Assembly: GCA_048937405.1 (NCBI GenBank)
Contig: JBHLNF010000007.1
Span: forward strand, 64,001 to 128,000
Origin: Promethearchaeota archaeon
GTDB taxonomy: Archaea; Asgardarchaeota; Lokiarchaeia; Sigyniarchaeales; SOKP01
Direction: 5' to 3'
DNA: 64,000 nucleotides
Part shown: in pieces, positions 4,496 through 54,006 of the stretch
How positions within the stretch are numbered: the first letter of the stretch is position 1
Layout of the letters: the number at the start of each line of letters is the position of its first letter
Position numbers and translations under genes: made by a program
Notes under the pieces: generated by a model
The model's input: the letters and a program-made list of their open reading frames with translations, nothing else
Database searches by the model: none
Told to the model about the DNA's origin: nothing

Positions 4496-4820
4496 TTTTA
4501 TGATTTTCATTAAATTAACTAAATAAAGAAAGGAAAGGGTTAATAAATAAAGATAATCACTTTATTTGGAACATATATAAAATAAAAATAGTTGATTAAG
4601 TGAAATGAATGATTAAACTCAAACATAATGGGATTTATTAGCAATTTCTAATTGAATATTTTAATACTTATCCTTTATCAAAGACTTTCTTTACAAATCT
4701 TAAATTTTAATTTTACGTGTAATTATTTGGAAATAGATTCTATTAAAATTCTATAAAAATTGTTGATATCAGTAATATGGACCTATAAAGCCTCTAGAAA
4801 TTAGAAAACCTTTAAAAAAA

Positions 4821-5189
4821 TTGATATTGAGTATTAAATTAGACAGAATTACTAATAATAAAAAAATGAGTATTATGAATTACTATATTTTTTTTGTAAC
4901 TGTGCCGAATATTGAAGAAGGGCAAAAAATAGCTAAGATATTAGTAGAAAACAAACTTGCTGCATGTGTAAATATAATTCAAAATGTTTTTTCAATTTAC
5001 AGATGGAAAGGGAATATAGAAGAAGATAATGAACAATTATTAATAATCAAAACCACAGAGCATAACAGTACTAAGATAATTAAAAAAGTAAAAGAAATTC
5101 ATTCTTATACAGAACCAGAGTGTATTGGTGTGAAGATTGAAAAGGGATCTGAAACCTATCTAAATTGGATTAAAGAAATGATAGAATAA
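4821..5189 (+). CDS. cutA: Divalent-cation tolerance protein CutA (true start probably 4867 or 4876)
   Basis: LVENKLAACVNII, SIYRWKG, HSYTEPEC, YLNW motifs. Confidence 0.92.
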   Translation: MILSIKLDRITNNKKMSIMNYYIFFVTVPNIEEGQKIAKILVENKLAACVNIIQNVFSIYRWKGNIEEDNEQLLIIKTTEHNSTKIIKKVKEIHSYTEPECIGVKIEKGSETYLNWIKEMIE

Positions 5190-5214
5190 AAAGAGAATAA
5201 AACATTCTAGAACT

Positions 5215-6051
5215 ATGCTATATGATATTTTTCAAATCGATTGGATCTTTGTCGATACAATTATAATAATTTTATTGATTTTACTCTTAATTTGCGTTAA
5301 GATTTTTAAATCAACACAACGATGGCGATCATCATTTTCTAATATAGCTTTAAATACTTTTTTCATTTCTGATATCCCTAATCTTAATACAAATGAAAAT
5401 CTTCTTGTAAAAAAGGTAGTTTTGATTAAAAATACTTCTTTAGTAGATAAATGCAATAAAAATCCAATTATTCTAATTTTAAGAACACATCCTAGAAGAA
5501 GATTATCAAGAATTTTAGCTGAGGGTATAGGAAGTAATGGTTACAATGTTATTTTAGCAAAAATTAAGATCAAGTATTATTCAAAAAAAAAAAATTCCCC
5601 TGAAATTATAATTAATGAGTTAAAATCTTTTCTTTCTATTATCTTAGATTCGTATAAAGAAAAAGGACTAATAATTAACCAGCATTATATAATATTAAAT
5701 AATTCAAGATTGTTAATTCCTCTTAAAGCGATTTTAACAGATAATAAAAACAGTGGTTTAATTTTAATCAATCCGAAAATAAATTCAGGAATTTTATATA
5801 ATAAAATAACAGCTAGTAGCGAAAAAAACACAAAAATGCCAATATATGCAATTTTCAGTAAAAATAACTTCTTTCTTTTCCCAAATAAAAACTTAAAAGT
5901 TCTACAATCTAATAATTTCTCTCAAAAATTGGATGAACTAAAAATTATCACTCTTGAAAAGGCAAAAAAATCATTTAAATACTATGAAACAATTATATTG
6001 GGAATTATTATTGATATTATTGAAAATAAATTAGTTAAAATAAATAATTAA
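5215..6051 (+). CDS. Hypothetical protein with N-terminal membrane anchor
   Basis: Hydrophobic N-terminus; operonic spacing with neighbours. Confidence 0.6.
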   Translation: MLYDIFQIDWIFVDTIIIILLILLLICVKIFKSTQRWRSSFSNIALNTFFISDIPNLNTNENLLVKKVVLIKNTSLVDKCNKNPIILILRTHPRRRLSRILAEGIGSNGYNVILAKIKIKYYSKKKNSPEIIINELKSFLSIILDSYKEKGLIINQHYIILNNSRLLIPLKAILTDNKNSGLILINPKINSGILYNKITASSEKNTKMPIYAIFSKNNFFLFPNKNLKVLQSNNFSQKLDELKIITLEKAKKSFKYYETIILGIIIDIIENKLVKINN

Positions 6052-6061
6052 TATTTAACTG

Positions 6062-6769
6062 ATGAAAAAAGAGAATATTTTAAGAGATCATAATGAATCG
6101 ATAATATATTCTGAAAAAGATTGGAATCTCTTAAAGGACAAAAGAGCGAATGCAATAAAACTATTAAAAATATTCACTATAGAAGGCTTTAATCCATTTA
6201 TTTATGGAAGTATTGCACGTGGCAATGTTCATGAAAATAGTGATATTGATATTATATTTCTTGACCAAGTTCCCTCATTTCAAATTGAATTCATATTAAA
6301 TAAAAATGGTTATAAAAATTATTTTAGAGAAATTATAATGGCAACTCCCTTAGATTCAATAAAACTTTACATTTACTTAAGTGAATTAGAGAGTATAACA
6401 ATACCATTATCAAAATTAGATAAAAATATTTTAGAATTTTATGATTTTGGTGGAAAAATCAACTATAATCAACTTGATTCAGATTTAAGAGTAGCGGGTA
6501 TTGATAAAAGACTAGTTCTAATCAACCCTACACCTGAAGGACACGAAGAAATCTCAATTATTGGAAATGAAGTAAGAGCTGCAAAAGAGGTAGGGATTAG
6601 TATTGAGACTTTAAATGAACGCAAAAAAGTGTTTTTAAGAAGGGAAAAACATGGAAGAACTGGTGTATTTTTAAAAAGACAACTTCAAATTAATGAAACC
6701 ACTGAAGAAGCTTTAAAAAATTTAGCAAATAAGAAATCTATTGTGAGAAAAAAATTATTTAAAATATGA
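6062..6769 (+). CDS. Archaeal Pol-beta-type nucleotidyltransferase (COG2413-like)
   Basis: YGSIARGNVHENSDIDI, RVAGIDKRL, GRTGVF. Confidence 0.85.
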   Translation: MKKENILRDHNESIIYSEKDWNLLKDKRANAIKLLKIFTIEGFNPFIYGSIARGNVHENSDIDIIFLDQVPSFQIEFILNKNGYKNYFREIIMATPLDSIKLYIYLSELESITIPLSKLDKNILEFYDFGGKINYNQLDSDLRVAGIDKRLVLINPTPEGHEEISIIGNEVRAAKEVGISIETLNERKKVFLRREKHGRTGVFLKRQLQINETTEEALKNLANKKSIVRKKLFKI

Positions 6770-7917
6770 GAAAGAAAATTTTAACCAAATCAGAAGGAGA
6801 AACTTATTTTATAAAAGTTAGGAGCATACCAAAAGGGTGTAAGTATTGTCTAGAAGGAAGTAAGGTTGTGTTATTTCTAAATGGTATTTGTCAAAAACCT
6901 AATCATTGTTCATGGTATTGCCCTATTTCGGAAGAAAGGAGAAATAAAAATCAAACTTATGCAAATGAAATTGAGATTACATCTAAAGAAGAACTAATTA
7001 AAGAAATAAATATGATAGACGCTCATGGAATGAGTATTACTGGAGGAGAACCACTTTCAGAGCTAAATTTTGGAAAAACCCTTGATTATATTAAATACAC
7101 TAAAAATAAAAAAGGAAAAAAATTTCATATTCACCTGTATACTAATGGTATTAATTTTAGTGAAGAAAAAGCTGAAAAACTATCTAGAGCAGGTTTGGAT
7201 GAGATAAGATTTCATCCTTCTAAAGAAAACTGGATTAATATAGAGAATGCTCTCAATAAACATATGACAGTGGGAGTAGAAGTACCCGTTATCCCTGAAA
7301 ATGAGAAGATAAAAGAACTCAAACAACTAATCCTTTATTTAAATACAATTGGAGTAGATTTTATTAATTTAAATGAATTTGAGTATTGTTTTCCTAATAG
7401 TCAATCATTAAAGGAACGAGGTTTTCAATTGAAAAAAGGATCAATTGCTTCAGTTGTCAATAGTCATGAAACTGGACTTAATTTAATAAGAACCATCGGT
7501 CCTAAAGTATCTTTTATGATGCATTTTTGCACTATAAAAGCTAAAGACTATTTTCAATTAAAAAACAGATATATTAGGAGAGCTAAAAATATCAGGCTAC
7601 CTTATGAAGTAATTAATGAAGAAGGGCTTATAATTTATGGACAAATAGAGGGAAGCAAAAAGGAATTAGATGAATTTTACAAAATTCTCTTGAATAAGCT
7701 AAAAATTCAAGATGAATTGATATCTTATAATAGGGTTAATATTAAACTTCCCTTTTATATCTCAATTAGGGATGAATTTTTATCACTTCTGGAAAATTAT
7801 GACTTAAAAGGTTACATTGTAGAGATTACACCTTTTAGACTTTTAAAATATCAACAAATAACTGAAAAGACCCCTATTAAATTATTTAAGGAAGAATATG
7901 GTTTTAATGGAAGTTAA
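6766..7917 (+). CDS. Radical SAM protein (archaeal COG2108-like)
   Basis: GCKYC, C-x5-CWYC cluster motif, SITGGEP, GLDEIRFHP, NLNEFE. Confidence 0.85.
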   Translation: MRKKILTKSEGETYFIKVRSIPKGCKYCLEGSKVVLFLNGICQKPNHCSWYCPISEERRNKNQTYANEIEITSKEELIKEINMIDAHGMSITGGEPLSELNFGKTLDYIKYTKNKKGKKFHIHLYTNGINFSEEKAEKLSRAGLDEIRFHPSKENWINIENALNKHMTVGVEVPVIPENEKIKELKQLILYLNTIGVDFINLNEFEYCFPNSQSLKERGFQLKKGSIASVVNSHETGLNLIRTIGPKVSFMMHFCTIKAKDYFQLKNRYIRRAKNIRLPYEVINEEGLIIYGQIEGSKKELDEFYKILLNKLKIQDELISYNRVNIKLPFYISIRDEFLSLLENYDLKGYIVEITPFRLLKYQQITEKTPIKLFKEEYGFNGS

Positions 7918-16345: not shown

Positions 16346-16540
16346 ATGAAATGCCCCGCATGTGATATACAAATGCAACTTTTAGTAGAAGGTATTTTCC
16401 AGTGCCCCCAATGCAAAAAAATAATTAAGCAAAAGGATTAGAAGGCAGAAGCAAAGGAGAAAAAAGCAACTGAAGAGGGTGTTTTTCAAGATGACGAATA
16501 TTTTCATAAAAAAGCGAGTTTGAATAATAAATATAAAATT
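16346..16540 (+). pseudogene. Relic 5' end (65 codons) of the zinc-ribbon gene at 21343
   Basis: Gap-free alignment to 21343-21537 with 26 mismatches in 195 nt by hand count; in-frame TAG at 16439-16441. Confidence 0.95.
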
Positions 16541-21342: not shown

Positions 21343-22308
21343 ATGAAATGTCCTGCATGCGATATACCAATGCAACCTTTAGTAGAAGGTATTTTCCAGT
21401 GCCCTCAATGCAAAAAAATAATAAAACAAAAAGATAAAGAGGCAGAAGCAAAGGAAAAAAAAGCTATTGAGGAGGGCAATTTTCAAGATGGGGAATATTT
21501 TCATAAAAATGCGAGCTTGAATAAACAATATGAAATTGCGGAATCTGGGATTATCATAAATAAAACCAATAATCGACTATTCGCAGTACTAATTTGTCAT
21601 AGTGCCTATTTAAAGGATGAGAAATATGTGAGATTATCTTGGTGGAAAAATTATCAACATGCAGGCATGTTAAAAATCTATGATAAATATGTTTTAAACA
21701 ATCTTATTATTGCTTTAGAAAAGGTAGATGAAGCATTTGATGATATTTGGGGTTGGAAAGGAAAATTTGGCAAACAAAAATCCAAAACAGAAGAAGATTT
21801 ACAGAAAGAAAAAAATTTGGATATTATAAAGTATAGAATTCTCGAAAATAAAACGTGTCCCAAATGTCAGAAAAAGATGGATAAAATGAAATCTCACTAT
21901 GAATGTCAGCACTGTGGAGAAATCGTCATTTTAGAAGGTTATAATCAACCTATATTCAATATTGCTCCAGAAGATATCGATCTACGATTTCACGCTAATT
22001 TTCCGATAAATTATTATTTACCCGTAAGTGGAATAACACTAAAATGGTTAATGGGTGAATGGAAAGCATTAGCAGTAATTTATTCTAAAGACAATCCCAA
22101 TAAAAAATGGTTAAGATTTTATTGGTGGATAAGAGATTTAAGTAATATTTTAAAATTTGGACAGAGAGAAATGGGAAATGGCACTCAGATGGGGTGGAAA
22201 ACTCAAAAGGGTGTTTCATCTCCAAATCTATATGAGAAAAATTTAGTTAAGCCTCTAATTAACGCACTAAAAAATATAGCAATCAAATTAAATTGGCAAA
22301 TTAATTAA
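21343..22308 (+). CDS. Protein with two repeats of zinc ribbon plus PC4-like domain
   Basis: CPAC/CPQC and CPKC/CQHC, each followed by a beta-rich unit (YVRLSWWK; WLRFYWW...WKTQKGVS) ending in a helix. Confidence 0.6.
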   Translation: MKCPACDIPMQPLVEGIFQCPQCKKIIKQKDKEAEAKEKKAIEEGNFQDGEYFHKNASLNKQYEIAESGIIINKTNNRLFAVLICHSAYLKDEKYVRLSWWKNYQHAGMLKIYDKYVLNNLIIALEKVDEAFDDIWGWKGKFGKQKSKTEEDLQKEKNLDIIKYRILENKTCPKCQKKMDKMKSHYECQHCGEIVILEGYNQPIFNIAPEDIDLRFHANFPINYYLPVSGITLKWLMGEWKALAVIYSKDNPNKKWLRFYWWIRDLSNILKFGQREMGNGTQMGWKTQKGVSSPNLYEKNLVKPLINALKNIAIKLNWQIN

Positions 22309-43157: not shown

Positions 43158-43236
43158 TTTGAAAGGGTAATTTCTTGTTTATTTTTCCTTCATTAATAAT
43201 TATTATAAAACTATAATCATTATTGTCTTTTAAAAA

Positions 43237-44163
43237 ATGCTAGAAGTAAATCTATCTGGGTTAAAATTAAAATCTCCTATTATTTTAGCCTCGGGAATTT
43301 TAGGAGTGTCTTTTTCTTCGATGAAAAGGGTGTTTGATGCTGGAGCTGGTGCAGTTACTACTAAATCCATTGGACCAAAACCAAGAAAGGGTTATAAAAA
43401 TCCATCTATAATTGAAATATATCCCGGAACTTTTATGAATAGCGTAGGTCTAGGTAATCCTGGTATCAATGAATTTATCTCAGAAATAAAAGAAATGAAA
43501 AAATTTGACATTCCACTAATCGTGAGTGTCTTTGGAAATACTAATGACGTTTATCTTGATGTAGCAGTTAAAGCAGAAAACGCAGGAGCTGATGCTATTG
43601 AAATTAATATTTCTTGTCCGCATGCAGAAGTATCTTCTATAGGGATTGATAAAGGATTAACTTTTGAAATTGTACAATTTTTAAAAAAAAAGCTTAAAGT
43701 TCCTCTTTTTGTCAAGTTAAACCCAAATGTGACAAATTTAGTAGAAATTGCTTTAGCAGCAGAAAAAGGAGGTGCTGATGGGGTAGTTGCTATAAATACC
43801 TTGTCAGCTTTGAAAATTGATATAAATACGAAAAGACCAATCCTATCACATGGAAGTGGAGGTCTTTCTGGCAAATCAATTCATCCCGTTGCTATAAAAA
43901 AAGTATATGACTTATATAAAGTCTTAAAAATTCCAATTATTGGATGTGGCGGTATAGATTCTTGGCAAGATGTAATAGAATTCTTTTTAGCTGGCGCCTC
44001 TGCAGTGCAAATCGGTACAGCGTTATATAAAACAACTGATATTATTTCTGAGATTAATAGCGGTATTTCTCAATATCTTAAAGATAATAATTATAAATCT
44101 ATTAATGATTTAAAAGGATTAGCTCATCAGTTTAAAACTCAGGAGGTACCAGATTTTGACTGA
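43237..44163 (+). CDS. pyrD: Dihydroorotate dehydrogenase family 1B catalytic subunit
   Basis: LASG, TKS, EINISCPH, VKLNPN, INT, GGLSG, GCGGI. Confidence 0.95.
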   Translation: MLEVNLSGLKLKSPIILASGILGVSFSSMKRVFDAGAGAVTTKSIGPKPRKGYKNPSIIEIYPGTFMNSVGLGNPGINEFISEIKEMKKFDIPLIVSVFGNTNDVYLDVAVKAENAGADAIEINISCPHAEVSSIGIDKGLTFEIVQFLKKKLKVPLFVKLNPNVTNLVEIALAAEKGGADGVVAINTLSALKIDINTKRPILSHGSGGLSGKSIHPVAIKKVYDLYKVLKIPIIGCGGIDSWQDVIEFFLAGASAVQIGTALYKTTDIISEINSGISQYLKDNNYKSINDLKGLAHQFKTQEVPDFD

Positions 44164-45010
44164 AAATACAATTAAGACAGTGAAAGTCCGAAACATTATT
44201 GAGGAATGCAAGGATGTAAAAACCCTTGTTTTTAATATGAAAATTAGAAAAAGTGAAAAATATATTACTCCTAAACCTGGACAATTTGTTATGGTATGGA
44301 TACCTGGCATAGATGAGGTACCTATGTCCCTATCTGGATGTGATAGTAATGGAAATTGGTCAATCACAGTTAAAAATGTAGGAGAATGTACAAATGCCAT
44401 GCATAATCTTAATATTGGAGATTATATTGGCATAAGAGGCCCATTAGGCAATCATTTTAAACTAAAAAATCATAATTTAAAAGAAATCTTCTTAATTGGG
44501 GGTGGAATTGGGATGGCTCCATTAAAATACCTCTCTACCCAACTTACTCAGATGAATATTAAACATAGAATTATAGAAGGAGTAAAAAATGAAGATGATA
44601 TTATGTTTAATAACTATTTTCAAGAAGCTATAAGGAATCATTCTGAAATTCACTATTGTACTGATGATGGAAGTTATGGAATAAAAGGTGTTGCTTCTGA
44701 TGTTTTTAAAGAACTGATAAGTAAATCTAATAAAAAAAAACTGTCTAATCTAGTAGTTTATTCCTGTGGTCCAGAAGTTATGCTATTTAAATTATTTCAA
44801 ATATGTCAAGAACAAAAAATTGAGTTTTATGCGAGTCTTGAAAGAATAATGAGATGTGGGTGTGGATTATGTGGTTTATGCGCATTAGATCCATTAGGAT
44901 TACTTGTTTGTAAAGATGGTCCTATATTTAATTCAAAACAATTAGAAAAAATTAAAGACTTCGGAAAATATCAGCGTGATTTTACAGGAAAAAAAATTTT
45001 AGTTAATTGA
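44156..45010 (+). CDS. pyrK: Dihydroorotate dehydrogenase electron-transfer subunit
   Basis: PGQF, RGPLG, GGGIGMAP, CGPEVM, MRCGCGLCGLC, VCKDGPIF. Confidence 0.95.
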   Translation: MTENTIKTVKVRNIIEECKDVKTLVFNMKIRKSEKYITPKPGQFVMVWIPGIDEVPMSLSGCDSNGNWSITVKNVGECTNAMHNLNIGDYIGIRGPLGNHFKLKNHNLKEIFLIGGGIGMAPLKYLSTQLTQMNIKHRIIEGVKNEDDIMFNNYFQEAIRNHSEIHYCTDDGSYGIKGVASDVFKELISKSNKKKLSNLVVYSCGPEVMLFKLFQICQEQKIEFYASLERIMRCGCGLCGLCALDPLGLLVCKDGPIFNSKQLEKIKDFGKYQRDFTGKKILVN

Positions 45011-45252
45011 TTTAATTTTATTGTTTTTCTCTTTTTGATTTTTTTTTAAATATATTAGATTTCGTGAATATCCTCTCTAATTCTGATATCTCTTTTTTCT
45101 AATTTTTTTCTAAAAGAACAAAATCAAATCTAATCAAAGCTTACCAAAAAATCACATCTTACAGAATATTAATAATTTAAACATTAATTTTATAATATTA
45201 ATAAATTAAATAAAATTGATAGAAATTATAATAGAGTTTAATAAATAATTCC

Positions 45253-45822
45253 ATGTGCTTCTATATTACATCAACGCTTCCAAAAAAGGTTAAATTAGAA
45301 GATTTAGAAGAAGTTTTTAAAAAATATAATATGGCTTTTAAATCGATAAAGAATGTATCAATTCAAGATCAATTAAGACCAGAGGAACTTTATTTTAGAG
45401 CAACTAATGCATATTGTGATTGTAATACTATATTGGGTGCCCTAAACACTTCTGAAGAATATAAAAAATTGCTAGATTCTGAAAAGATAAGGAGTTTAAA
45501 AAAGAAAAAGTGGACATCGGAACAAATTGATATCTGGATCCATGAAAAAATTAAAGGGAAAAACCCAAAATTTGAGAAACTTACTGAGATCGAAAAAGAA
45601 AATGAAATAAAAAGATGGAAAGACTTTATTCAAGAGATATTAGCATCAAAAAAGGTTAAGAGAATTGGAATTTTAAAGCACTGGTATAATTCAAGTCTTT
45701 CTGAGGAAAAATTTAAAATTAGAGAATTTAAACAAATACAAATAGACCGATTAAATAAAAATTTACTTTTAAATTTAGAAGAAGATATTCTTTATGAGTT
45801 TATCCCACTTTACAAATATTAA
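45253..45822 (+). CDS. Hypothetical protein (possible Cys/His metal site)
   Basis: MC...YCDC...HWY; first cargo gene after pyrK. Confidence 0.65.
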   Translation: MCFYITSTLPKKVKLEDLEEVFKKYNMAFKSIKNVSIQDQLRPEELYFRATNAYCDCNTILGALNTSEEYKKLLDSEKIRSLKKKKWTSEQIDIWIHEKIKGKNPKFEKLTEIEKENEIKRWKDFIQEILASKKVKRIGILKHWYNSSLSEEKFKIREFKQIQIDRLNKNLLLNLEEDILYEFIPLYKY

Positions 45823-45986
45823 TGATATATAATCGTATTTAGACCATTTTTTCAAGAGTAATAATTTATTGAATAATAATCTTTTAAACAATTATTAAAA
45901 GCTTTTTTCATTTTATAGACTGAGGAATAACGATTTTCAGGTTTATAGGTCACAGTTTTTCGAAAGAATTAATTAAAACAATCTAA

Positions 45987-46127
45987 CGCGGTTTATGAGC
46001 ATTAGATCAATTATAATTGCTGGACTATAAGGATGGACAGATTTTTAATCTGGAAACTCTCAAAGAAATTCAGGATTTTGGGAAGTATAAAAGAGATTTT
46101 ACTGGTAAAAAGATATCATTAGAATAG
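45987..46127 (+). pseudogene. Relic pyrK 3' end, copy 1
   Basis: GL*ALDQL*LLDYKDGQIFNLETLKEIQDFGKYKRDFTGKKISLE* aligns without gaps to PyrK GLCALDPLGLLVCKDGPIFNSKQLEKIKDFGKYQRDFTGKKILVN*. Confidence 0.93.
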
Positions 46128-46130
46128 TTT

Positions 46131-47414
46131 TTAAGTCTTTTTTGTTGGTCGAAGCCCTAAAATAGCTTCGCTTATTTTATTACCAATCTTAACAATTCCT
46201 AGCATATTAAGCAAGATATCAAAGAATAAATAAGGTTTCACAGGATTTTCATCATTTTTTAGAATCTCAGCTAATTTGGAATGAAACTCAAAGCTTAATG
46301 CCTCAACCTTCTTGTATTGGTCCTCAGATATAAACTGATAGTATATCAAGTTCTTCTCGAGTGCCTCCATAAGTACACTAATTATCTCTATCATTGGTAA
46401 TTCTTCCATAGATACAGATGTCAGGAGATGACTCTCTGTCGCTTCTAAATAACTATTAATGTAGTCTGAAATCATCTTAAGTTTTTTATATTCATAAGAG
46501 AATTTAGGTATATTTGCCAGAAGAGGTTCCCAATTATTCTCTCTTATTGCCTTTTCTAAATCAAATTCCTTTTTTTCCAATAGCAAATCAAAATCTTTAC
46601 TTAGCTTATAATATTTTCTCTTGATATTGCCAGGTTGTACCTCATCTTCTTTTGTGTATGATTGAATTAATCCCAATCGAATTAAATCTCTTGTGCAACG
46701 AGAAAGTTGTGCTTTACTTTTACCTGTATGATAAGACATTTCTTTAAGGCTTAATTCCTTATAAATTTTCAGTAATATGAATATTCTGAAGTCTAATTCA
46801 TTCCGAAAAACATCTACAAACTGCCTTTTAGGATATACCCTTTTAATTATTTTCGCAAAATTATTAAAAAGATCTACTATTTCTTTTTCTTTTTCTGAAG
46901 ATATTTCTATCGCTCCGATTAGATTTCTTGTGGAGGCTAACTTATTACCATGTTCGATAGAGACCTCTCTCTCATCTTGAAGATCTGCTTTAGTTCCAAT
47001 CATTAGAATCGGAATACTCACATTTCTTTTGGTTTTTTTAAATAATTTTAGCCACCATTCTAAATCGGCTAGACTAGATTTATCGGTTATATCATAAACA
47101 AATATAGCCCCCGCAGCACCTACAGTAAAAGGTTCAAAATAAGGTTGTGGTTTTTTTAATTTACCTTCCCTTTTTGTTTTTGTTAATTTAAGATCCTTAA
47201 ATTTTTCTGTACCTGTGAGTTCCCAAACATGCAATATTAAGTCTATATCATCTATTTTTAATGTCTTCTGATAGAATGTTACTCCTAAAGTTAATTTTGG
47301 GGGAGCACCTAAACTTTTATTATCAGCTTCTTTAAAATATTTACTTAATAATGTGGATTTTCCCACTCCACTTTCTCCAAAAACACATATTTTATAGATT
47401 TGTGGTTTTTTCAT
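46131..47414 (-). CDS. Rab/Ras-like small GTPase fused to a winged-helix domain
   Basis: GESGVGKS, WELTG, VYDIT, GTKAD, EISS; then LSLKEMSYHTGKSKAQLSRCTRDLIRLGLI...RKYYKL. Confidence 0.85.
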   Translation of the reverse strand: MKKPQIYKICVFGESGVGKSTLLSKYFKEADNKSLGAPPKLTLGVTFYQKTLKIDDIDLILHVWELTGTEKFKDLKLTKTKREGKLKKPQPYFEPFTVGAAGAIFVYDITDKSSLADLEWWLKLFKKTKRNVSIPILMIGTKADLQDEREVSIEHGNKLASTRNLIGAIEISSEKEKEIVDLFNNFAKIIKRVYPKRQFVDVFRNELDFRIFILLKIYKELSLKEMSYHTGKSKAQLSRCTRDLIRLGLIQSYTKEDEVQPGNIKRKYYKLSKDFDLLLEKKEFDLEKAIRENNWEPLLANIPKFSYEYKKLKMISDYINSYLEATESHLLTSVSMEELPMIEIISVLMEALEKNLIYYQFISEDQYKKVEALSFEFHSKLAEILKNDENPVKPYLFFDILLNMLGIVKIGNKISEAILGLRPTKKT

Positions 47415-47545
47415 TTTTTTATTACCATTTTATTTTTATTTAATTTCATAAAAAATGTAACGTTTCATATATATAAATATTATGCAACGCTGGAAATCAT
47501 CCCTAATCATTACAAAATCAACTTTAAAAATTTTTAAAAATCTTT

Positions 47546-47638
47546 AAAGATGACCCGATTTTCGATTTGGAATCGCTAAAAAAGATTCAAGATTTCGGAA
47601 AATCTCAAAGAGAATTCACAGGTAAAAAAATAAAAATT
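47546..47638 (+). pseudogene. Relic pyrK 3' end, copy 2
   Basis: KDDPIFDLESLKKIQDFGKSQREFTGKKIKI vs PyrK KDGPIFNSKQLEKIKDFGKYQRDFTGKKILV. Confidence 0.9.
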
Positions 47639-47642
47639 TGCT

Positions 47643-49049
47643 TTATTGACTGAGGATACTACCTACATCGTTAATTAATTTTTTATAAAATTGATCTTCT
47701 TCCATCTCATGTTTTAATATTCCTTGTACTCTTCGAATCCGCATCTTTAATCCCGGACTTAAGTCTGTTTCTCTTAAATATATTGCTAAATATGGTTTCT
47801 TTTCATTCATAGCAAGATGAATTTCATCTTGAGTATTATCCGATTCCATCACATAAGGAGATATAAATGAAAGAAATAAACTGCATCCTAATAATTTTTC
47901 TGCAATAGTATTACACCAATCTGTACTTAAGGGAATTCCTTCATCATACCATATTCGAAAACCTTTATTATCTAATTTTTGTAGAATGGGGTATACCTCC
48001 GCTTTATCTTTATGAGTATAACTTACGAAAATAAATTTTTTATCTCCCATATATGCTGAGAAAGGAGGTTCAACTGATAATTCTGCTGTGGTTTGCTTTA
48101 AATTGCTTTTAAGATAAGTTTCCAAATCCTTTTCGTTTTTGGGTAGACTTGGATCATTAAGATCACCAAATTTCTTTAAAATTTTTTGAACATGCTTAGG
48201 ATTGTTCATTATTTTAGAAATAACATCATAATTATCTAATATTAATTTTGTTGGCTTTCCAGATTCTGCTCTTTCTTTTGGGATTTTTACAATTAAGCTT
48301 ACAACCTTTTTTGTTACCCAATTCTCAACACCTGTTTCTTCATTAAACAAATCTTTTGTCGTTTTACCGGCATATTCACCCCCCCACTCTAAAGTAACCA
48401 GCTCATCATTAATAAATATTTTATAATCACCTTCTAGCATAATAGCTGGATCTTCTTTGAACAAACTTTGAGTAGCTACAAGATCTATTCTTTTTTGGAT
48501 TGATTTAAAAAATTCTTTACTAACTTTGAACGGTAAATTATCTGATGTAATGATTTTTTTTCCTATTAGCATGAGATAAATTGCCGTCTGGTGCAAACAT
48601 AATCCTTTTTTTTTTCCAATAATACAAGAACAGCTTCTTTTTACAGCACCGTCGACAATTTGAAGGGAAGCTTTTTGAGATCCATATTTACTTGAAAACC
48701 AGACGTTATATCCTTTTCCACCACCTATAATAACAGCATTTTGAATTTTTTCGACCTTATGCTCTCCGCTAATTAGTGATACTGCATTTAATAATAATTG
48801 TTCTGCAAAATCCTTTTCAAAATCTTTGTATAATCTCTTTTTTTCATTATCTTCTAGTGAGGAGTCGAGAAAAGTCACTAATTCCTCCTTTTTAAGGTTT
48901 GAATATCCTTTCAAATTCTTTTCTTTGCTAATAGCGCCTTGATTATATCCCTTTATTATCTCCTTAATTTTTGGAATGGTTAGTGATTTCAAAAATGTCT
49001 CAAATGTGAAAGGCTCTAATCCTTTTACTTTTGGTTTCTTTTTTCCCAT
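47643..49049 (-). CDS. SAP/HeH-like, SWIM zinc finger and C-terminal TIR domain protein
   Basis: LTIPKIKEII..GYSNLKKEELV; CSC-x8-CLH; FVSYTHKD...WYDEGI...QDEI. Confidence 0.82.
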   Translation of the reverse strand: MGKKKPKVKGLEPFTFETFLKSLTIPKIKEIIKGYNQGAISKEKNLKGYSNLKKEELVTFLDSSLEDNEKKRLYKDFEKDFAEQLLLNAVSLISGEHKVEKIQNAVIIGGGKGYNVWFSSKYGSQKASLQIVDGAVKRSCSCIIGKKKGLCLHQTAIYLMLIGKKIITSDNLPFKVSKEFFKSIQKRIDLVATQSLFKEDPAIMLEGDYKIFINDELVTLEWGGEYAGKTTKDLFNEETGVENWVTKKVVSLIVKIPKERAESGKPTKLILDNYDVISKIMNNPKHVQKILKKFGDLNDPSLPKNEKDLETYLKSNLKQTTAELSVEPPFSAYMGDKKFIFVSYTHKDKAEVYPILQKLDNKGFRIWYDEGIPLSTDWCNTIAEKLLGCSLFLSFISPYVMESDNTQDEIHLAMNEKKPYLAIYLRETDLSPGLKMRIRRVQGILKHEMEEDQFYKKLINDVGSILSQ

Positions 49050-49127
49050 ATTTTATCAAATTCATTTTCCATAAAAAGTATTCCTATTGACTATTAAAGA
49101 ATATTTTTTAGATAAAAATTAAAATAA

Positions 49128-49235
49128 TTTGCCCTATCTCATATTGGAATCTTTTTAATTAGAGACTAATTACTTTATATCTCAGAAGTCCTTAGTAATT
49201 TGGAAGATTTTAGAAAATATTAACATAAATTTCAT
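49128..49235 (+). pseudogene. Relic pyrK 3' end, copy 3 (heavily decayed)
   Basis: FALSHIGIFLIRD*LLYISEVLSNLEDFRKY*HKF stays in register with CALDPLGLLVCKDGPIFNSKQLEKIKDFGKYQRDF. Confidence 0.6.
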
Positions 49236-49370
49236 AAAGAAGGCAATATAAAATCGATTTTGATATCAAAAAGTAAAATTATGAACTTTAATTAATTGAG
49301 TTGTTTCTTGGATATTTAGAATTCTTTTTAAGATTTAAAAAAGATAAAAATTTTTTAAAGTGTTTTTTAG

Positions 49371-50246
49371 CTATACTATTTCGCTATAAAGGGGAGATCC
49401 GGCTTTCATATAACGATTCATTTGACGTAGAGAGGCAACTTCTTTGCCCCCTTCTTTTTCTTTTAAAATAGCATCGTACCAGTAATATTCTGTCTTTCGA
49501 CTAACACCCGCACATATTACTTTTCCAGTTGCTTCATAAGGAATCCCAACCATTACTGGTCCATTAATATTTTGAATTTCAGTAGCCCCATAAAATGGTA
49601 CACCTTGGGTCCTCGCAATGTCTAAGATATTTGAGTTTAGAGACATCGTCCAAAATATAGCTGTCGGTGATAGAATTGATTTTCCCCATGGTGAATTTCC
49701 CTTATAGTAATCAAGATGATCAGTTATCGTTTTTAATCCTTCATTAGCATCCTCTTGGAAGATTAAGACATCTTTCATATTAAGATCGTCTCCTACTTTC
49801 ATTCCTGCTAAAATTCGCAGTTCCTCTGGTTTACTATTTTTAAGTTCTATACTTTGAAGGTAAGATAATTCTTTTGGTTCACCAACTGCTGCTGTACCTG
49901 TTGCAACGACTTGTCCGTTTGGCATCTCAACTCGCGCTTCTACTTGAACATCTTTAGACTCCTCAGAAGGCATCTTAATAATCCCTCTTACCTTTTCTTT
50001 ATGAGTTGTAGCAAATGTGTAATACATACTTAATGATCCTCTTTCAAACCATCGCTGCCCAAAAATTTCAAGTAATAACGGAGCGAATAAACTCAAATGG
50101 ATTGTTCCAGGAATTGTCCCACCTCGCATTCCTACTTTTTTTGCAGTAGCATCATCATGAATTGATGTTTTTAAATTGCTCCAAAGGTTTTCTGGGGCTC
50201 TCCAAGCGCCATACATAAATCCATCTTTAATAGTAATTTCAGTCAT
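49371..50246 (-). CDS. Double hot-dog-fold (MaoC-like) protein
   Basis: SIHDDATAKKVGMRGGTIPGTIH resembles the MaoC hydratase motif. Confidence 0.7.
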   Translation of the reverse strand: MTEITIKDGFMYGAWRAPENLWSNLKTSIHDDATAKKVGMRGGTIPGTIHLSLFAPLLLEIFGQRWFERGSLSMYYTFATTHKEKVRGIIKMPSEESKDVQVEARVEMPNGQVVATGTAAVGEPKELSYLQSIELKNSKPEELRILAGMKVGDDLNMKDVLIFQEDANEGLKTITDHLDYYKGNSPWGKSILSPTAIFWTMSLNSNILDIARTQGVPFYGATEIQNINGPVMVGIPYEATGKVICAGVSRKTEYYWYDAILKEKEGGKEVASLRQMNRYMKAGSPLYSEIV

Positions 50247-50535: not shown

Positions 50536-51567
50536 TCAATCTGGTTTAAGAAGATCATATACTATCTCTGGTTCAAGTGGCTGATATGGTGTCTTCTTGA
50601 AGTGTTCTTTGCATAATTCATAAAGAATTTTATTAAACGGAGCATCCACTCCAAGTAAATTAGCTAATTTTATAAAATAACCATTAAGGGATTCTAGTTC
50701 TGATCGACCTTTTTGACGAATTATCATATCCTGTATCATACTGTTTGGCCCCCTATCTATGAAAAATCTCGAAAATATTTTATCTGCTATTTCGGTGGGT
50801 AAATTTACAGCATCTTGTAACTCTTTCCAAGGTAAAAAACCTGGTAAACTGTATTCATGATACCCAGCAGCTTGAACTATATTGATACCTTCATTCAATG
50901 TAGTGACAATGATCTCTCTCAGAATTGAGATTGAGTTTGGACTAGGATTTTTATGATTGATTAGTGTTAAAATGGAATTTAAAAGGTTGAAAATCATTTT
51001 ACCATGAATAGCATCCTGTATTTTCTCTGAGATTTGAACTTTCGTAGCTTTACTTAATATTTCACACATTTCTTTTAGTTCTTTTTGTAAACTATTGTCA
51101 AGCGTACCAAGAATGAGGTATCCCCGATTTAAGTATCCAAAAATGCCTGGTTCATCCCTCCATGCCGATATCATTATAACACCGTATATAATTTTAGAAA
51201 AATATTTAGGCAACACTTTTTGGTTTTCAGTACCATTTTGTAATGTGATAATGATTGGGTTATCTCCTAATTTCTCATGAATATCTTTCGCAACTTCCTC
51301 CAAGTCATAATTCTTTACAACTATGATTACGACATTAGTTGAAGGCTTTTCGTTTAAATCTTGAATAATTTTCACAGGAATTGGATTTTTCGGGGGATTT
51401 TCTTTTCTGTATAGAATTATTCCTTTATTCATCATAACTTTGGCGTTTTGACCACGTGCCAACAGATAAACTTTATCATAATAAGGTGATAGCCATGCAC
51501 CAATTGAAGCGCCTATTGCACCCGCGCCATATATCACAATCTCATAATCCTTATTCAAATTTGACAT
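50536..51567 (-). CDS. panE: Ketopantoate reductase family protein
   Basis: GAGAIG, VKNYD, LQNG, K...N, SMIQD, SELESLNG. Confidence 0.85.
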   Translation of the reverse strand: MSNLNKDYEIVIYGAGAIGASIGAWLSPYYDKVYLLARGQNAKVMMNKGIILYRKENPPKNPIPVKIIQDLNEKPSTNVVIIVVKNYDLEEVAKDIHEKLGDNPIIITLQNGTENQKVLPKYFSKIIYGVIMISAWRDEPGIFGYLNRGYLILGTLDNSLQKELKEMCEILSKATKVQISEKIQDAIHGKMIFNLLNSILTLINHKNPSPNSISILREIIVTTLNEGINIVQAAGYHEYSLPGFLPWKELQDAVNLPTEIADKIFSRFFIDRGPNSMIQDMIIRQKGRSELESLNGYFIKLANLLGVDAPFNKILYELCKEHFKKTPYQPLEPEIVYDLLKPD

Positions 51568-51741: not shown

Positions 51742-53401
51742 ATGGAACAATCAGAGAATATAAACTTAAGTAAAGTAAAGAAAATAGCAAGGGAAATAAT
51801 TGAATATCTGTTAATAAATCCTAATACTTCCCGCAGAAAAATTACAAACCTTAAAGGACAAATTGGCAAAAAATATAATTATGATCGAGTAATAAAAAAT
51901 GCCACAATCTTGTCTCATGCAACAAATGAAGAAAAAGAGATTATCACTAAATTATTGAAGAGAAGAACAACAAGAACTATTTCAGGAGTTTCAGTAATTG
52001 CTATTATGACAAAACCTCTTCCTTGTCCTGGAACATGTATTTATTGTCCAGGTGTAAAATCCCAACCAGGAGAAAAAGTTGCCCAATCATATACAGGAAG
52101 AGAACCCGCAGCTATGAGATCAATATATAATAATTATGATCCCTACAAGCAAGTTCAATCTCGAATTAAAGATTTAGAAGCAATTGGGCATAAAGTGGAC
52201 ATGGTTTACGCTTGGTTGTATTCCACCATAAAAGATTGAACTTATTATAATGGGAGGGACATTTTTATCAATAGATTCAGAATATCAAAAACAATTCGTA
52301 AAAGGAGCATTAGAGGGAATAATAGAACAGAAAACAAATACCATAGAAGAAGCTAAGATATTAGCAGAAAAGGCTAAGCGAAGAGTTATAGGAATTACAG
52401 TTGAAACAAGACCAGACTATTGTAAAGAAACCCATATTGATAATATGTTACACTTTGGAACTACTCGAGTCGAAATTGGTATTCAAACAATTTATAATGA
52501 AATCTATGATTTGATAAAAAGAGGACATACTACTGCTGATAGCATTGAATCGATAAGACTTGCTAAAGATGCTGGGTTAAAGATCAATGCTCATATAATG
52601 CCAAATTTACCGGGTTCCAATTATTCTCTAGATTTAAAACTATTTGCCAATTTGTTCTCTATACCAGATTATCGCCCAGATATGTTAAAGATTTATCCCA
52701 CTCTGGTAATAAATGGAACTGAATTATATGATTGGTGGAAAAGTGGTAAATATATGCCCTATTCTGATAAAGAATTAATAGAACTAATTGTAAAAGCTAA
52801 AATCGATCTCCCTCCTTATGTTAGAATTCAAAGAATTATGCGAGATATCCCTGCTACCTTAATTGAAGCAGGTTGTAAGAATAGTAACTTAAGACAGTTA
52901 GTACAAGAACGATTAAAAGAAACTAATCAAATTTGTAAATGTATTAGGTGCAGAGAATATGGAATCAGTAAAAGAAAAGATATTCTCAATGAAGATTCAT
53001 TTGATGATATAAAACTATATCGTTTGGATTATGATGCCTCGCTAGGAAAAGAAATTTTCTTATCTTATGAAAATAAAAAAGAAGGTTATTTAATTGGATA
53101 TTTACGCTTAAGAAAGCCTTCTGAATTTGCTCATAGACCTGAATTGAATGATGGAAAAACAATGATTGTAAGGGAGATTAAAGTCGTTGGTGAATTAGTT
53201 CCTAAAGACATGAAACCAAATAGATATACTCAAATCCAACATAGAGGATATGGTAAACTTTTAATGGAAAATGCTGAGAAAATATCGTTTAAAGATTTCA
53301 AAATGAGTAAATTAGCTGTAATTAGTGGTCTTGGCGCAAAAGACTGGTTTTATGATTTAGGATATAAACCAGATGGTGTATATGTCTCGAAAATTCTTTA
53401 A
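51742..53401 (+). CDS. elp3: tRNA U34 acetyltransferase Elp3, two exons: join(51742..52200,52232..53401), 542 aa
   Basis: RTISGVSVIAIM, CPGTCIYCPG, QSYTGREPA in exon 1; (K)IELIIMGGTF, ETRPD, LKIYP, RIMRDIP, QHRGYG in exon 2. Confidence 0.95.
52201..52231 (+). other. Putative 31-nt BHB/BHL-type mRNA intron in elp3
   Basis: Central helix GTGG/CCAT, bulges AC|A and AA|A, intron stem TGG/CCA plus TAC/GTA; removal gives GHKVD-KIELIIMGGTF. Confidence 0.82.
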
Positions 53402-54006
53402 TTTTAAAAATCGAATTTGTTAGTAATTTGATTATAATTATTTTATTGAATCCTTTTTAAAACATTTTATTATTTAAAAAAAAGGCATTAAAAATTAATA
53501 AAAATAGAGGAGAATTAAAGGAGGATTTCTCGCTCCTTCAATCTGTTTTTTTTCATTTAAATTGAAATTGTGGCAAGGCTACAGTCAAACTTTGAATCTT
53601 ATCAAGAAAAACTGTACAAAGATAGTTTTTCGAGATCATTTATAAAGATAGTTGTAATAATTTTAATTTAAAGATCACTACTCTAAAGATTCTACAAAAC
53701 AAAAGTAATGAAAAAATAGCATATAACCTATCAATATGGAGAAATCATATTTCTGAAAATTCCCAGACACTAATCAAAACAACAACAAGTAAATTAAATT
53801 ACATAGATTTTAATTTCTCATTTAACAACAATTTATATCATTGAGAAGAATATCATCTTTTCAAGTTCTTTTTTAATTATATTTAAGAATTTACCATTAT
53901 CCTTGTTAATCTTATTATTTTATCATAAACCTTTTTTGAAAATAAGTATAAGATTTATTACTTCACTATTTATAGTATTGGATAATCATTAAAAAATAAA
54001 ATTTGA

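Follow-up and report, generated by a model that had tools for sequence, protein, structure and literature searches.

Single-gene units bounded by displaced copies of the pyrK 3′ end in a Promethearchaeota genome, with homology-anchored insertion-duplication as their probable origin

The window analysed here is a 64,000-nucleotide stretch (G+C ~30%) of the genome of a Promethearchaeota archaeon, and the locus under study is the gap between pyrK and elp3, in which single cargo genes are interspersed with displaced copies of the pyrK 3′ end. The window corresponds to positions 64001-128000 of contig C25 of this genome, designated G000 (4.47 Mb, 29 contigs); the other G-numbers denote genomes of relatives. 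The left flank is formed by pyrD (43237..44163, + strand; Pfam DHO_dh, E 1e-70), which codes for the catalytic subunit of dihydroorotate dehydrogenase B and is kept in 41/41 loci. It is followed by the docking gene pyrK (44156..45010, +), coding for the electron-transfer subunit (Pfam FAD_binding_6, NAD_binding_1, DHODB_Fe-S_bind). The repeated 3′ end of pyrK, termed F, runs from the junction of the GLC and ALDP codons (44873, ~codon 240) to the stop codon and comprises ~45 codons or ~135 bp. F0 is the resident working end (44873..45010, +), which is foreign to the gene body and linked to cargo 1, the family-less gene ORF189 (45253..45822, +). Relic 1 (F1; 45990..46127, +) is a hybrid, degenerate in its left part, which has 2 stops, and intact in its right half. 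Cargo 2 (46131..47414, -) codes for a Ras/Roc-type small GTPase fused to a winged-helix domain, hereafter GTPase-wHTH (Pfam Ras 1e-26, Roc 9e-13, weak HTH_IclR), and the right end of its cassette (47415..47533) is the upstream region of the gene, including ATGCAACGCTGGAAATC. Relic 2 (F2; 47534..47641, +) is without a stop codon and its right end is linked to cargo 3, a gene for an SAP-like/SWIM/TIR protein (SWIM-TIR; 47643..49049, -). Relic 3 (F3; 49131..49232, +), the most decayed, cargo 4, coding for a 291-aa protein (49371..50246, -), and cargo 5, a ketopantoate-reductase-like (panE-like) gene (50536..51567, -; Pfam ApbA 1e-25, ApbA_C 4e-14), complete the array. The conserved right flank is elp3 (51742..53401, +), assigned by Pfam (ELP3_N, Radical_SAM, Radical_SAM_C) and synteny. 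The layout of genes and relics behind pyrK had been proposed in the initial annotation, and open reading frame coordinates and tblastn agree with it.

The three relics are genuine copies of the pyrK 3′ end, as the initial annotation had claimed. In a tblastn search of PyrK against the window, relic 1 was matched at 45990-46115 (E 1e-11, 69% over 42 aa, 2 stops), relic 2 at 47534-47638 (E 2e-8, 60% over 35 aa, no stop) and relic 3 at 49131-49232 (E 0.19, 32% over 34 aa, 2 stops). They are the top three non-self PyrK matches in the window, and are collinear, on the same strand and confined to the last 35-45 residues. When the PyrK tail was searched against the whole genome, relic 3 ranked fifth (E 0.85), preceded by pyrK, relics 1 and 2 and one true paralogue; true paralogues aside, no PyrK-tail fragments were found elsewhere in the genome by this search. 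A profile of 18 PyrK tails recovered relic 1 with E 5e-18, relic 2 with E 1.6e-12 and relic 3 with a domain E of 0.012. The orthologue of relic 3 in G053 scores E 7e-4. Relic 3 is weak when taken alone and was accepted because of its genome rank, its profile score and the score of the G053 orthologue.

The relics also abut and decay as the sequence had first suggested. The stop codon of relic 1 ends at 46127 and that of the convergent GTPase gene starts at 46131; homology of relic 2 stops at ~47641 and the SWIM-TIR stop codon starts at 47643. The gaps are thus 1-4 nt. Compared with the resident end, the differences of relic 1 fall on the three codon positions as 10/8/22 (15 of the changed codons are synonymous, 14 non-synonymous), and those of relic 2 as 10/7/16. 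Among working pyrK ends of different genomes, third positions account for 58% of differences. The third-position bias of relics 1 and 2 is like that of working alleles, and the view that similar protein with different codons marks former functional alleles holds for these two. Relic 3, the most distal, shows a near-random pattern (24/15/21) and is therefore considered fully decayed.

Relic 1 is composed of two parts that meet at ~codon 36 of a 60-codon tail profile. Its right half matches the working end of pyrK in G067 (95% identity), in G024 (94%) and in G065 (92%), and each of these ends adjoins a GTPase-wHTH gene or its scar. The left half, which holds both stops, is at most 75% identical to any working end. 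In G024, the working pyrK end and the 3′ end of a truncated GTPase gene closely match relic 1 and the GTPase 3′ end of G000. Similar associations are seen with other cargo. The F end that accompanies the 507/508-aa cargo (..FA.KKI..) is common to G014, where it is working, G024, where it is a relic, and G041, where it is left as a scar. The tail KKINI, followed by the stop codon, accompanies SWIM-TIR in G042 and G053, and the right part of relic 2 matches the right part of Fx, the G053 relic that resembles both F1 and F2. By these identities, the right half of each F belongs with the cargo gene to its right.

The same comparisons bear on a local tandem duplication of the resident pyrK end, with neutral divergence and later insertion of genes between the copies. 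Such an origin would account for copies that are direct repeats and for decay that grows with distance. It was rejected, and is regarded as extremely improbable. The right half of relic 1 is much nearer to working alleles of other species (94-95%) than to the resident end (72% for relic 1 in a blastn alignment), the differences are third-position-biased as between working alleles, and even the resident end is of foreign origin with respect to the body of pyrK. The relics are instead displaced, once-working pyrK ends, or parts of such ends, that were brought in with cargo.

The foreign nature of the resident end is seen when G000 is compared with its relatives. The pyrK body of G000 has its highest DNA identity to G018, G053 and G051 (84-85%). 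Between G000 and G053, identity is ~85% in pyrD and the pyrK body (84.5% for the latter); mismatch density collapses between 44834 and 44900, and identity then stays at 96-100% through F0 (96%) and ORF189 to ~45980, and at ~95% across the SWIM-TIR gene. F0 carries the signature NSKQLEKI in common with G004, G059 and G064, although the pyrK bodies of this group are only ~64-65% identical in DNA to that of G000 (a comparison covering the bodies of G004 and G059). Because F0 resembles this group despite the distant bodies, pyrK is a mosaic, with its breakpoint at the edge of F or slightly within it. The body of the gene up to ~44872 has been inherited vertically. As a separate observation, this body (44156-44872) evolves much faster than pyrD within the genus, at 55-70% against 80-87% amino acid identity for the same genome pairs.

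Transfer of cargo is indicated in the same way. The GTPase-wHTH proteins of G000, G058, G067, G046 and G060 are 84-91% identical to one another while the pyrK bodies of these genomes are only 55-70% identical, and the G000 protein shares 85-89% amino acid identity with the copies directly behind pyrK in the other four. G018, the closest relative by core genes, carries only a 64% allele. These values show that cassettes move between species of the genus. Together with the linkage of F to cargo and the mosaic pyrK, they uphold the earlier suggestion that pyrK-plus-cargo DNA is acquired and displaces the old 3′ end.

pyrK was found in 41/41 of the genomes first searched, and a tail-only search took in 54 genus genomes; locus comparisons were made on 41 readable genus pyrK loci and 9 loci from other genera. 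elp3 lies 8-150 nt after pyrK in most of the genus loci and in the 9 loci of other genera. Since elp3 adjoins pyrK in most loci, the order pyrD-pyrK-elp3 is taken as ancestral and everything between pyrK and elp3 as insertion. The comparison with relatives, proposed at the outset as a check, revealed a variable locus: cargo is present at 14/41 loci, as 1-5 inserted genes, and F relics at 6/41. Only the 291-aa gene is found in G004, G064 and G059, and only SWIM-TIR in G042. GTPase-wHTH is present in G058, G067 and G046; in G060 it is accompanied by an intact relic and a 175-aa gene, and in G018 the 64%-identical GTPase-wHTH is accompanied by an intact 44-codon relic and a macro-domain gene. G014 has a 507-aa GTPase-like gene; G024 a truncated GTPase-wHTH, two partial relics and a 508-aa gene; G041 a partial relic and an HTH-Roadblock gene. 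ORF189, a relic, SWIM-TIR and another relic are found in G053, and five cargo genes with three relics in G000. In G008, G065, G056 and G041 the site is empty or altered, but an F end of the cargo type remains, together with a short scar of a lost cargo gene. No relics were found within 1.5 kb of pyrK in the 9 loci outside the genus. A second variable spot lies directly after elp3 (window 53402-54006 versus 4800-7339 of locus L033), where ~360-aa and ~357-aa genes are present in most relatives and missing in G000, G018, G024 and G014.

The order of events within the array was addressed by the comparison with G053. This genome aligns to G000 at 43192-46114 and resumes from 47545, and an 87-nt stretch of G053 matches both F1 and F2. 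The G053 relic Fx is F1-like on its left, including the flank, and F2-like on its right. From the hybrid and the alignment it follows that precisely one F + GTPase unit, with F repeats on either side, separates the two genomes. Three histories are compatible with this. An existing relic may have taken up the GTPase unit in the G000 line, the unit may have been lost by recombination between F1 and F2 in the G053 line, or the ORF189 unit may have entered two different arrays. Under all three, every relic consists of the left part of the left-hand unit and the right part of the right-hand unit, and array order need not be strictly chronological. The strict chronological reading in the initial annotation is thus not supported: G053 equals G000 minus one internal unit, so that either gain and loss of units can take place at internal relics or two different arrays received the newest cassette.

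The cargo genes are mostly convergent with pyrK and lie within a few bases of F, or overlap F in several genomes; in G000, four are on the - strand and ORF189 alone is on the + strand. ORF189 has no Pfam or PADLOC match and no paralogue in the genome, and is 97% identical in amino acids to its counterpart at the same position in G053. At every place where a GTPase-wHTH or SWIM-TIR gene is present, the upstream region of that gene is conserved with it. The right end of the GTPase cassette (47415..47533) can be aligned in G000, G024, G018, G058, G067, G046 and G060, after which different DNA follows in each. The motif ATGCAACGCTGGA(A/G)ATC, with small variants in some copies, is present ~70 nt upstream of every GTPase-wHTH gene (47484-47500 in the window; also in loci L031, L037, L057, L062, L063 and L069). 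It may serve as an operator bound by the winged-helix domain of the same protein, or may be what decay has left of the left part of F.

The SWIM-TIR protein carries the C-x-C-x9-C-x-H signature of SWIM and matches TIR_2 (Pfam, 2e-16), in agreement with its first description, with a further weak ThsB-like match; by these matches it is a candidate defence NADase. Behind pyrK it is 94% identical in amino acids in G053 and 78% in G042. Copies with 74-78% amino acid identity are present at three mutually different other loci, L078 (G008, contig C28), L079 (G007, C104) and L080 (G065, C67), where they keep the same ~50-nt upstream region. No F fragment or flanking repeat was found at these three loci, and since the copies are close, the gene is taken to be mobile in its own right. 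The 291-aa protein is 73-79% identical in amino acids to the sole pyrK-elp3 gene of G004, G064 and G059. It had been labelled a hot-dog protein. Its language-model neighbours include MaoC/FAS1-dehydratase clusters, which are of hot-dog type; it has no Pfam match, and a fold model from a 4-sequence alignment reached a mean pLDDT (predicted local distance difference test) of 37. The label serves as a lead only, and the protein possibly adopts a double hot-dog fold. The ketopantoate-reductase-like gene occurs in the pyrK-elp3 gap of G000 only (0/40 other loci). Elsewhere, the cargo of G018 includes a macro-domain protein (L031:4906-5535, -; Pfam Macro 7.5e-13) and that of G041 an HTH + Roadblock/LC7 protein (L059:3006-3581, -; 1.8e-13).

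The absence of an integrase, remarked on for the window in the initial annotation, extends to the relatives: no integrase, transposase or virus gene was found in any of the 41 loci. PF00589 has no match on the 234-kb contig C25. In the whole of G000 it has two, a 311-aa Xer-like protein on C9 and a 391-aa protein on C28; one broken resolvase is also present, on C10. Homologues of the 391-aa integrase are found in four other genus genomes, all of which have empty pyrK sites, and it is absent from every other cargo-bearing genome. These results weigh on the possibility that the units are remnants of larger integrative elements, proviruses or plasmids with integrases, which integrated successively at the pyrK 3′ end and were reduced to single genes. 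An end supplied by the insert together with a displaced native end is a hallmark of such elements, and the scars in G008, G065, G056 and G041 show that cargo has been deleted. An integrase or a recognisable virus or plasmid gene is nevertheless present in 0/14 cargo-bearing loci, and where cargo abuts or overlaps F no room is left on that side for lost element DNA. This origin is considered very unlikely. A 2026 preprint on Asgard viruses and satellites has no bearing on the locus.

A genome-wide scan for gene-end relics beside the parent gene, another check proposed at the outset, placed the pyrK locus among many. The last 45 residues of 3495 open reading frames were searched against the G000 genome, and relic-like matches within 15 kb and outside long reading frames were collected. 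C-terminal relics on the same strand were downstream for 36 parent genes and upstream for 11; N-terminal relics were upstream for 44 and downstream for 25. This bias is expected of insertion-duplication, because only when the homology spans the gene end does such an event leave the gene intact. After removal of tandem paralogues, 17 other genes of G000 have the arrangement of gene and end, unrelated cargo of 0.6-10 kb, and a relic 0.7-10 kb downstream on the same strand. Repeat length at these loci is 88-328 bp and repeat identity 74-95%; the repeats begin 95-247 nt ahead of the stop codon and often extend up to 80 nt beyond it. The genes are uvrA (C7:922094-924964), C22:70715-72052, C25:182444-183532, C19:36408-37223, C13:236195-237334, C13:240002-241273, C18:265434-266015, C27:82983-84704, C7:483683-484951, C2:45388-46530, C28:480461-481822 and six more, and they include two convergent genes on C13. 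In the case of uvrA, an N-terminal relic is present as well, 2.8 kb upstream of the gene. At C19:36408-37223, the site is empty in 5/5 relatives checked. The cargo at these loci is diverse, and no recombinase or transposase common to it was found.

Two further observations were made in this context. A paralogue family of 265-298 aa, with 10 matches in the genome, forms the cargo at three separate gene-end relic loci (C13:237468-238361, C13:239036-239932, C13:242600-243505, C27:85092-85889 and C20:26990-29056) and may be mobile. In the window, the initial 45 codons of the gene at 21343-22308 have a second copy 4.9 kb upstream on the same strand, at 16346-16480, with 89% amino acid identity and one stop; this copy may be a displaced 5′ end.

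The best explanation of the locus is homology-anchored insertion-duplication, of the Campbell type or by homology-facilitated illegitimate recombination (HFIR), which is integron-like in its outcome only; a probability of about 0.6 is assigned to it. The features of such a process are found here. Imperfect direct repeats of the target flank the insert, and one copy completes the gene, at pyrK as well as at the 17 loci. The repeat copies are reciprocal hybrids with variable crossovers (F1, Fx, and F0 with its breakpoint further left). The process is not bound to one target sequence, as uvrA and 16 other unrelated genes carry the same signature and N-terminal relics are enriched upstream. HFIR, one of two routes suggested in the initial annotation, fits the data well. 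The pyrK-elp3 gap would accordingly be a recombination hotspot that piles up single-gene units, each consisting of a replacement pyrK end F, a cargo gene and the upstream region of that gene. A unit would enter by recombination within F, either as a circle, by one crossover of the Campbell type, or, as in HFIR, as linear DNA that is joined through homology at one end and illegitimately at the other. The right part of the incoming F would complete pyrK, and the previous end would be stranded downstream. The left part of a relic would then belong to the left-hand unit and never have been under selection, while the right part would belong to the right-hand unit and once have been a working pyrK end. 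Once in place, the F repeats would serve as portable homology for gain, loss and exchange of units among species of the genus. Insertions would be retained at gene ends, the only place where they do not disrupt the gene. RadA-type homologous recombination, with occasional illegitimate joining, would presumably carry out these steps. This pathway is a matter of reconstruction, as are the nature of the DNA that enters and the succession of events, whereas the relics, their linkage to cargo, the mosaic pyrK, the transfer between species, the lack of an integrase and the occurrence of the signature across the genome are observed.

Several points weigh against this explanation. F1/Fx, the G018 relic and probably F3 all start sharply at the same codon (the GLC-ALDP junction) with unrelated DNA to the left, and independent illegitimate joins are not expected to coincide; the explanation has to assume that the shared boundary was inherited through recombination between F copies. 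In seven genomes the right end of the GTPase unit is defined and conserved, which is what a true cassette would show. Either a site-specific enzyme or an ancestral boundary passed on by recombination between F copies would explain both. How a cargo gene first came to lie between two F copies is left unexplained. Finally, simple filters were applied to the relics listed across the genome, and one further locus, on C19, was compared with relatives.

The boundaries lead to an integron-like alternative, in which an unrecognised recombinase encoded elsewhere, or a host Xer-type enzyme, acts on a site in the pyrK end and inserts and excises circular single-gene cassettes that carry a copy of the site. 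Compact single-gene cassettes with a defined conserved right end, one sharp left boundary shared by several relics (at GGTTTATG in relic 1), the presence of the same cassette in different array contexts and use of the site in 14/41 genomes would all be in keeping with it. Over the two or three events that could be resolved, though, the inferred breakpoints are at differing positions: that of F0 falls at ~codon 2-30 of the 60-codon tail profile and that of F1/Fx at ~36-38. No integrase is present at any locus, and the sole tyrosine recombinase of G000 that is not Xer-like is missing from all other cargo-bearing genomes. Hairpin-forming, attC-like folding of F as single-stranded DNA showed no excess (z 0.16 for F0, -0.23 for F1, -1.12 for F2 and 0.82 for the G018 relic). 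No similarity to pyrK was found left of the relic boundary, where a two-armed core site would be expected to leave some. The same architecture, with variable repeat lengths, occurs at 17 unrelated genes, which also argues against the trans-acting recombinase put forward in the initial annotation, if it is to be specific for pyrK. Site-specific insertion of this kind is judged unlikely. The fuller proposal, slightly more doubtful still, makes the pyrK end the attachment site of a cassette system whose units, each with a spare pyrK end and several of them defence-like, circulate among Loki-type Asgard species while the recombinase is encoded elsewhere. If true, it would be an archaeal counterpart of integrons with a coding gene end in place of attC.

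Homology-anchored insertion-duplication has its closest described counterpart in the sequential displacement at type VI secretion system (T6SS) effector-immunity, Rhs and CdiA loci (Kirchberger et al. 2017, PMC5361080). Its authors propose HFIR and discuss the integron analogy explicitly, and the study cites Jackson et al. 2009 (PMC2935791) for displacement arrays. As at pyrK, a module enters via conserved upstream homology, the old 3′ end and its partner gene are pushed downstream, and orphaned ends accumulate in arrays with no integrase. At those loci, however, the toxic cargo is the variable 3′ end as such, and the genes kept in the array are immunity genes. Here the displaced end is a conserved piece of a housekeeping enzyme and acts as a homology handle only, and the cargo, in an Asgard archaeal host, consists of single genes that are unrelated.

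Integrative elements offer a second comparison. At icd (e14, phage 21) and at the 3′ end of fda (ICESt1/ICESt3 and tandem accretion with cis-mobilizable elements, CIME), the insert brings differently spelled last codons, and at the far junction a pseudogene fragment of the native end is left; when such a site is used again and again, tandem arrays arise in which the internal elements are without a recombinase. The pyrK units likewise bring a replacement gene end and displace the native end as a fragment. The icd/fda elements, in contrast, need an element-encoded tyrosine integrase and a short fixed core, while no integrase is present in the 41 loci here and the inferred breakpoints appear to vary, although several relics have a left boundary in common. 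Integrons are defined by IntI, attI and attC cassettes and have also been reported in archaeal metagenome-assembled genomes. Their resemblance to the pyrK array lies in single-gene cassettes stacked at one docking point with older ones further off. The likeness holds for this outcome and fails for IntI and a folded attC, both missing here. Integron cassettes are mostly promoterless, face one way and are transcribed from a shared promoter, whereas the cargo genes here are of mixed orientation and appear to have upstream regions of their own, and the repeat is a protein-coding gene end. The overall interpretation given to the locus at first holds as to displaced working ends, a variable locus and HFIR, and is not supported as to strict chronology and an integron analogy beyond the outcome. 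Tycheposons of Prochlorococcus reportedly build hypervariable islands at tRNA and gene ends, which expand as integration recurs at a single site and partial copies of the target are left behind; they are said to encode their own integrases.

In the G000 window, nop5 (- strand) is the left neighbour of pyrD; Nop5 and Elp3 agree with a Loki-type Asgard archaeon as the host.

What is new here is the use of a housekeeping gene end purely as a handle, the single-gene cassettes common to Asgard species and the frequency of the gene-end relic signature across one genome. The locus gives a sequence-level view of how accessory genes, among them TIR, macro-domain and small-GTPase genes, are gained and exchanged in close archaeal relatives of eukaryotes. 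Exchange seems to proceed without recognisable mobile-element machinery, with a short conserved gene end as a reusable handle. The presence of empty and filled states in sister species makes the pyrK locus a concrete test case for the recombination mechanism. If the 17 other loci hold, insertion-duplication at gene ends would be a common route of gene gain in this lineage, and from the displaced ends one could read, and date, the series of acquisitions as well as the alleles of the past.

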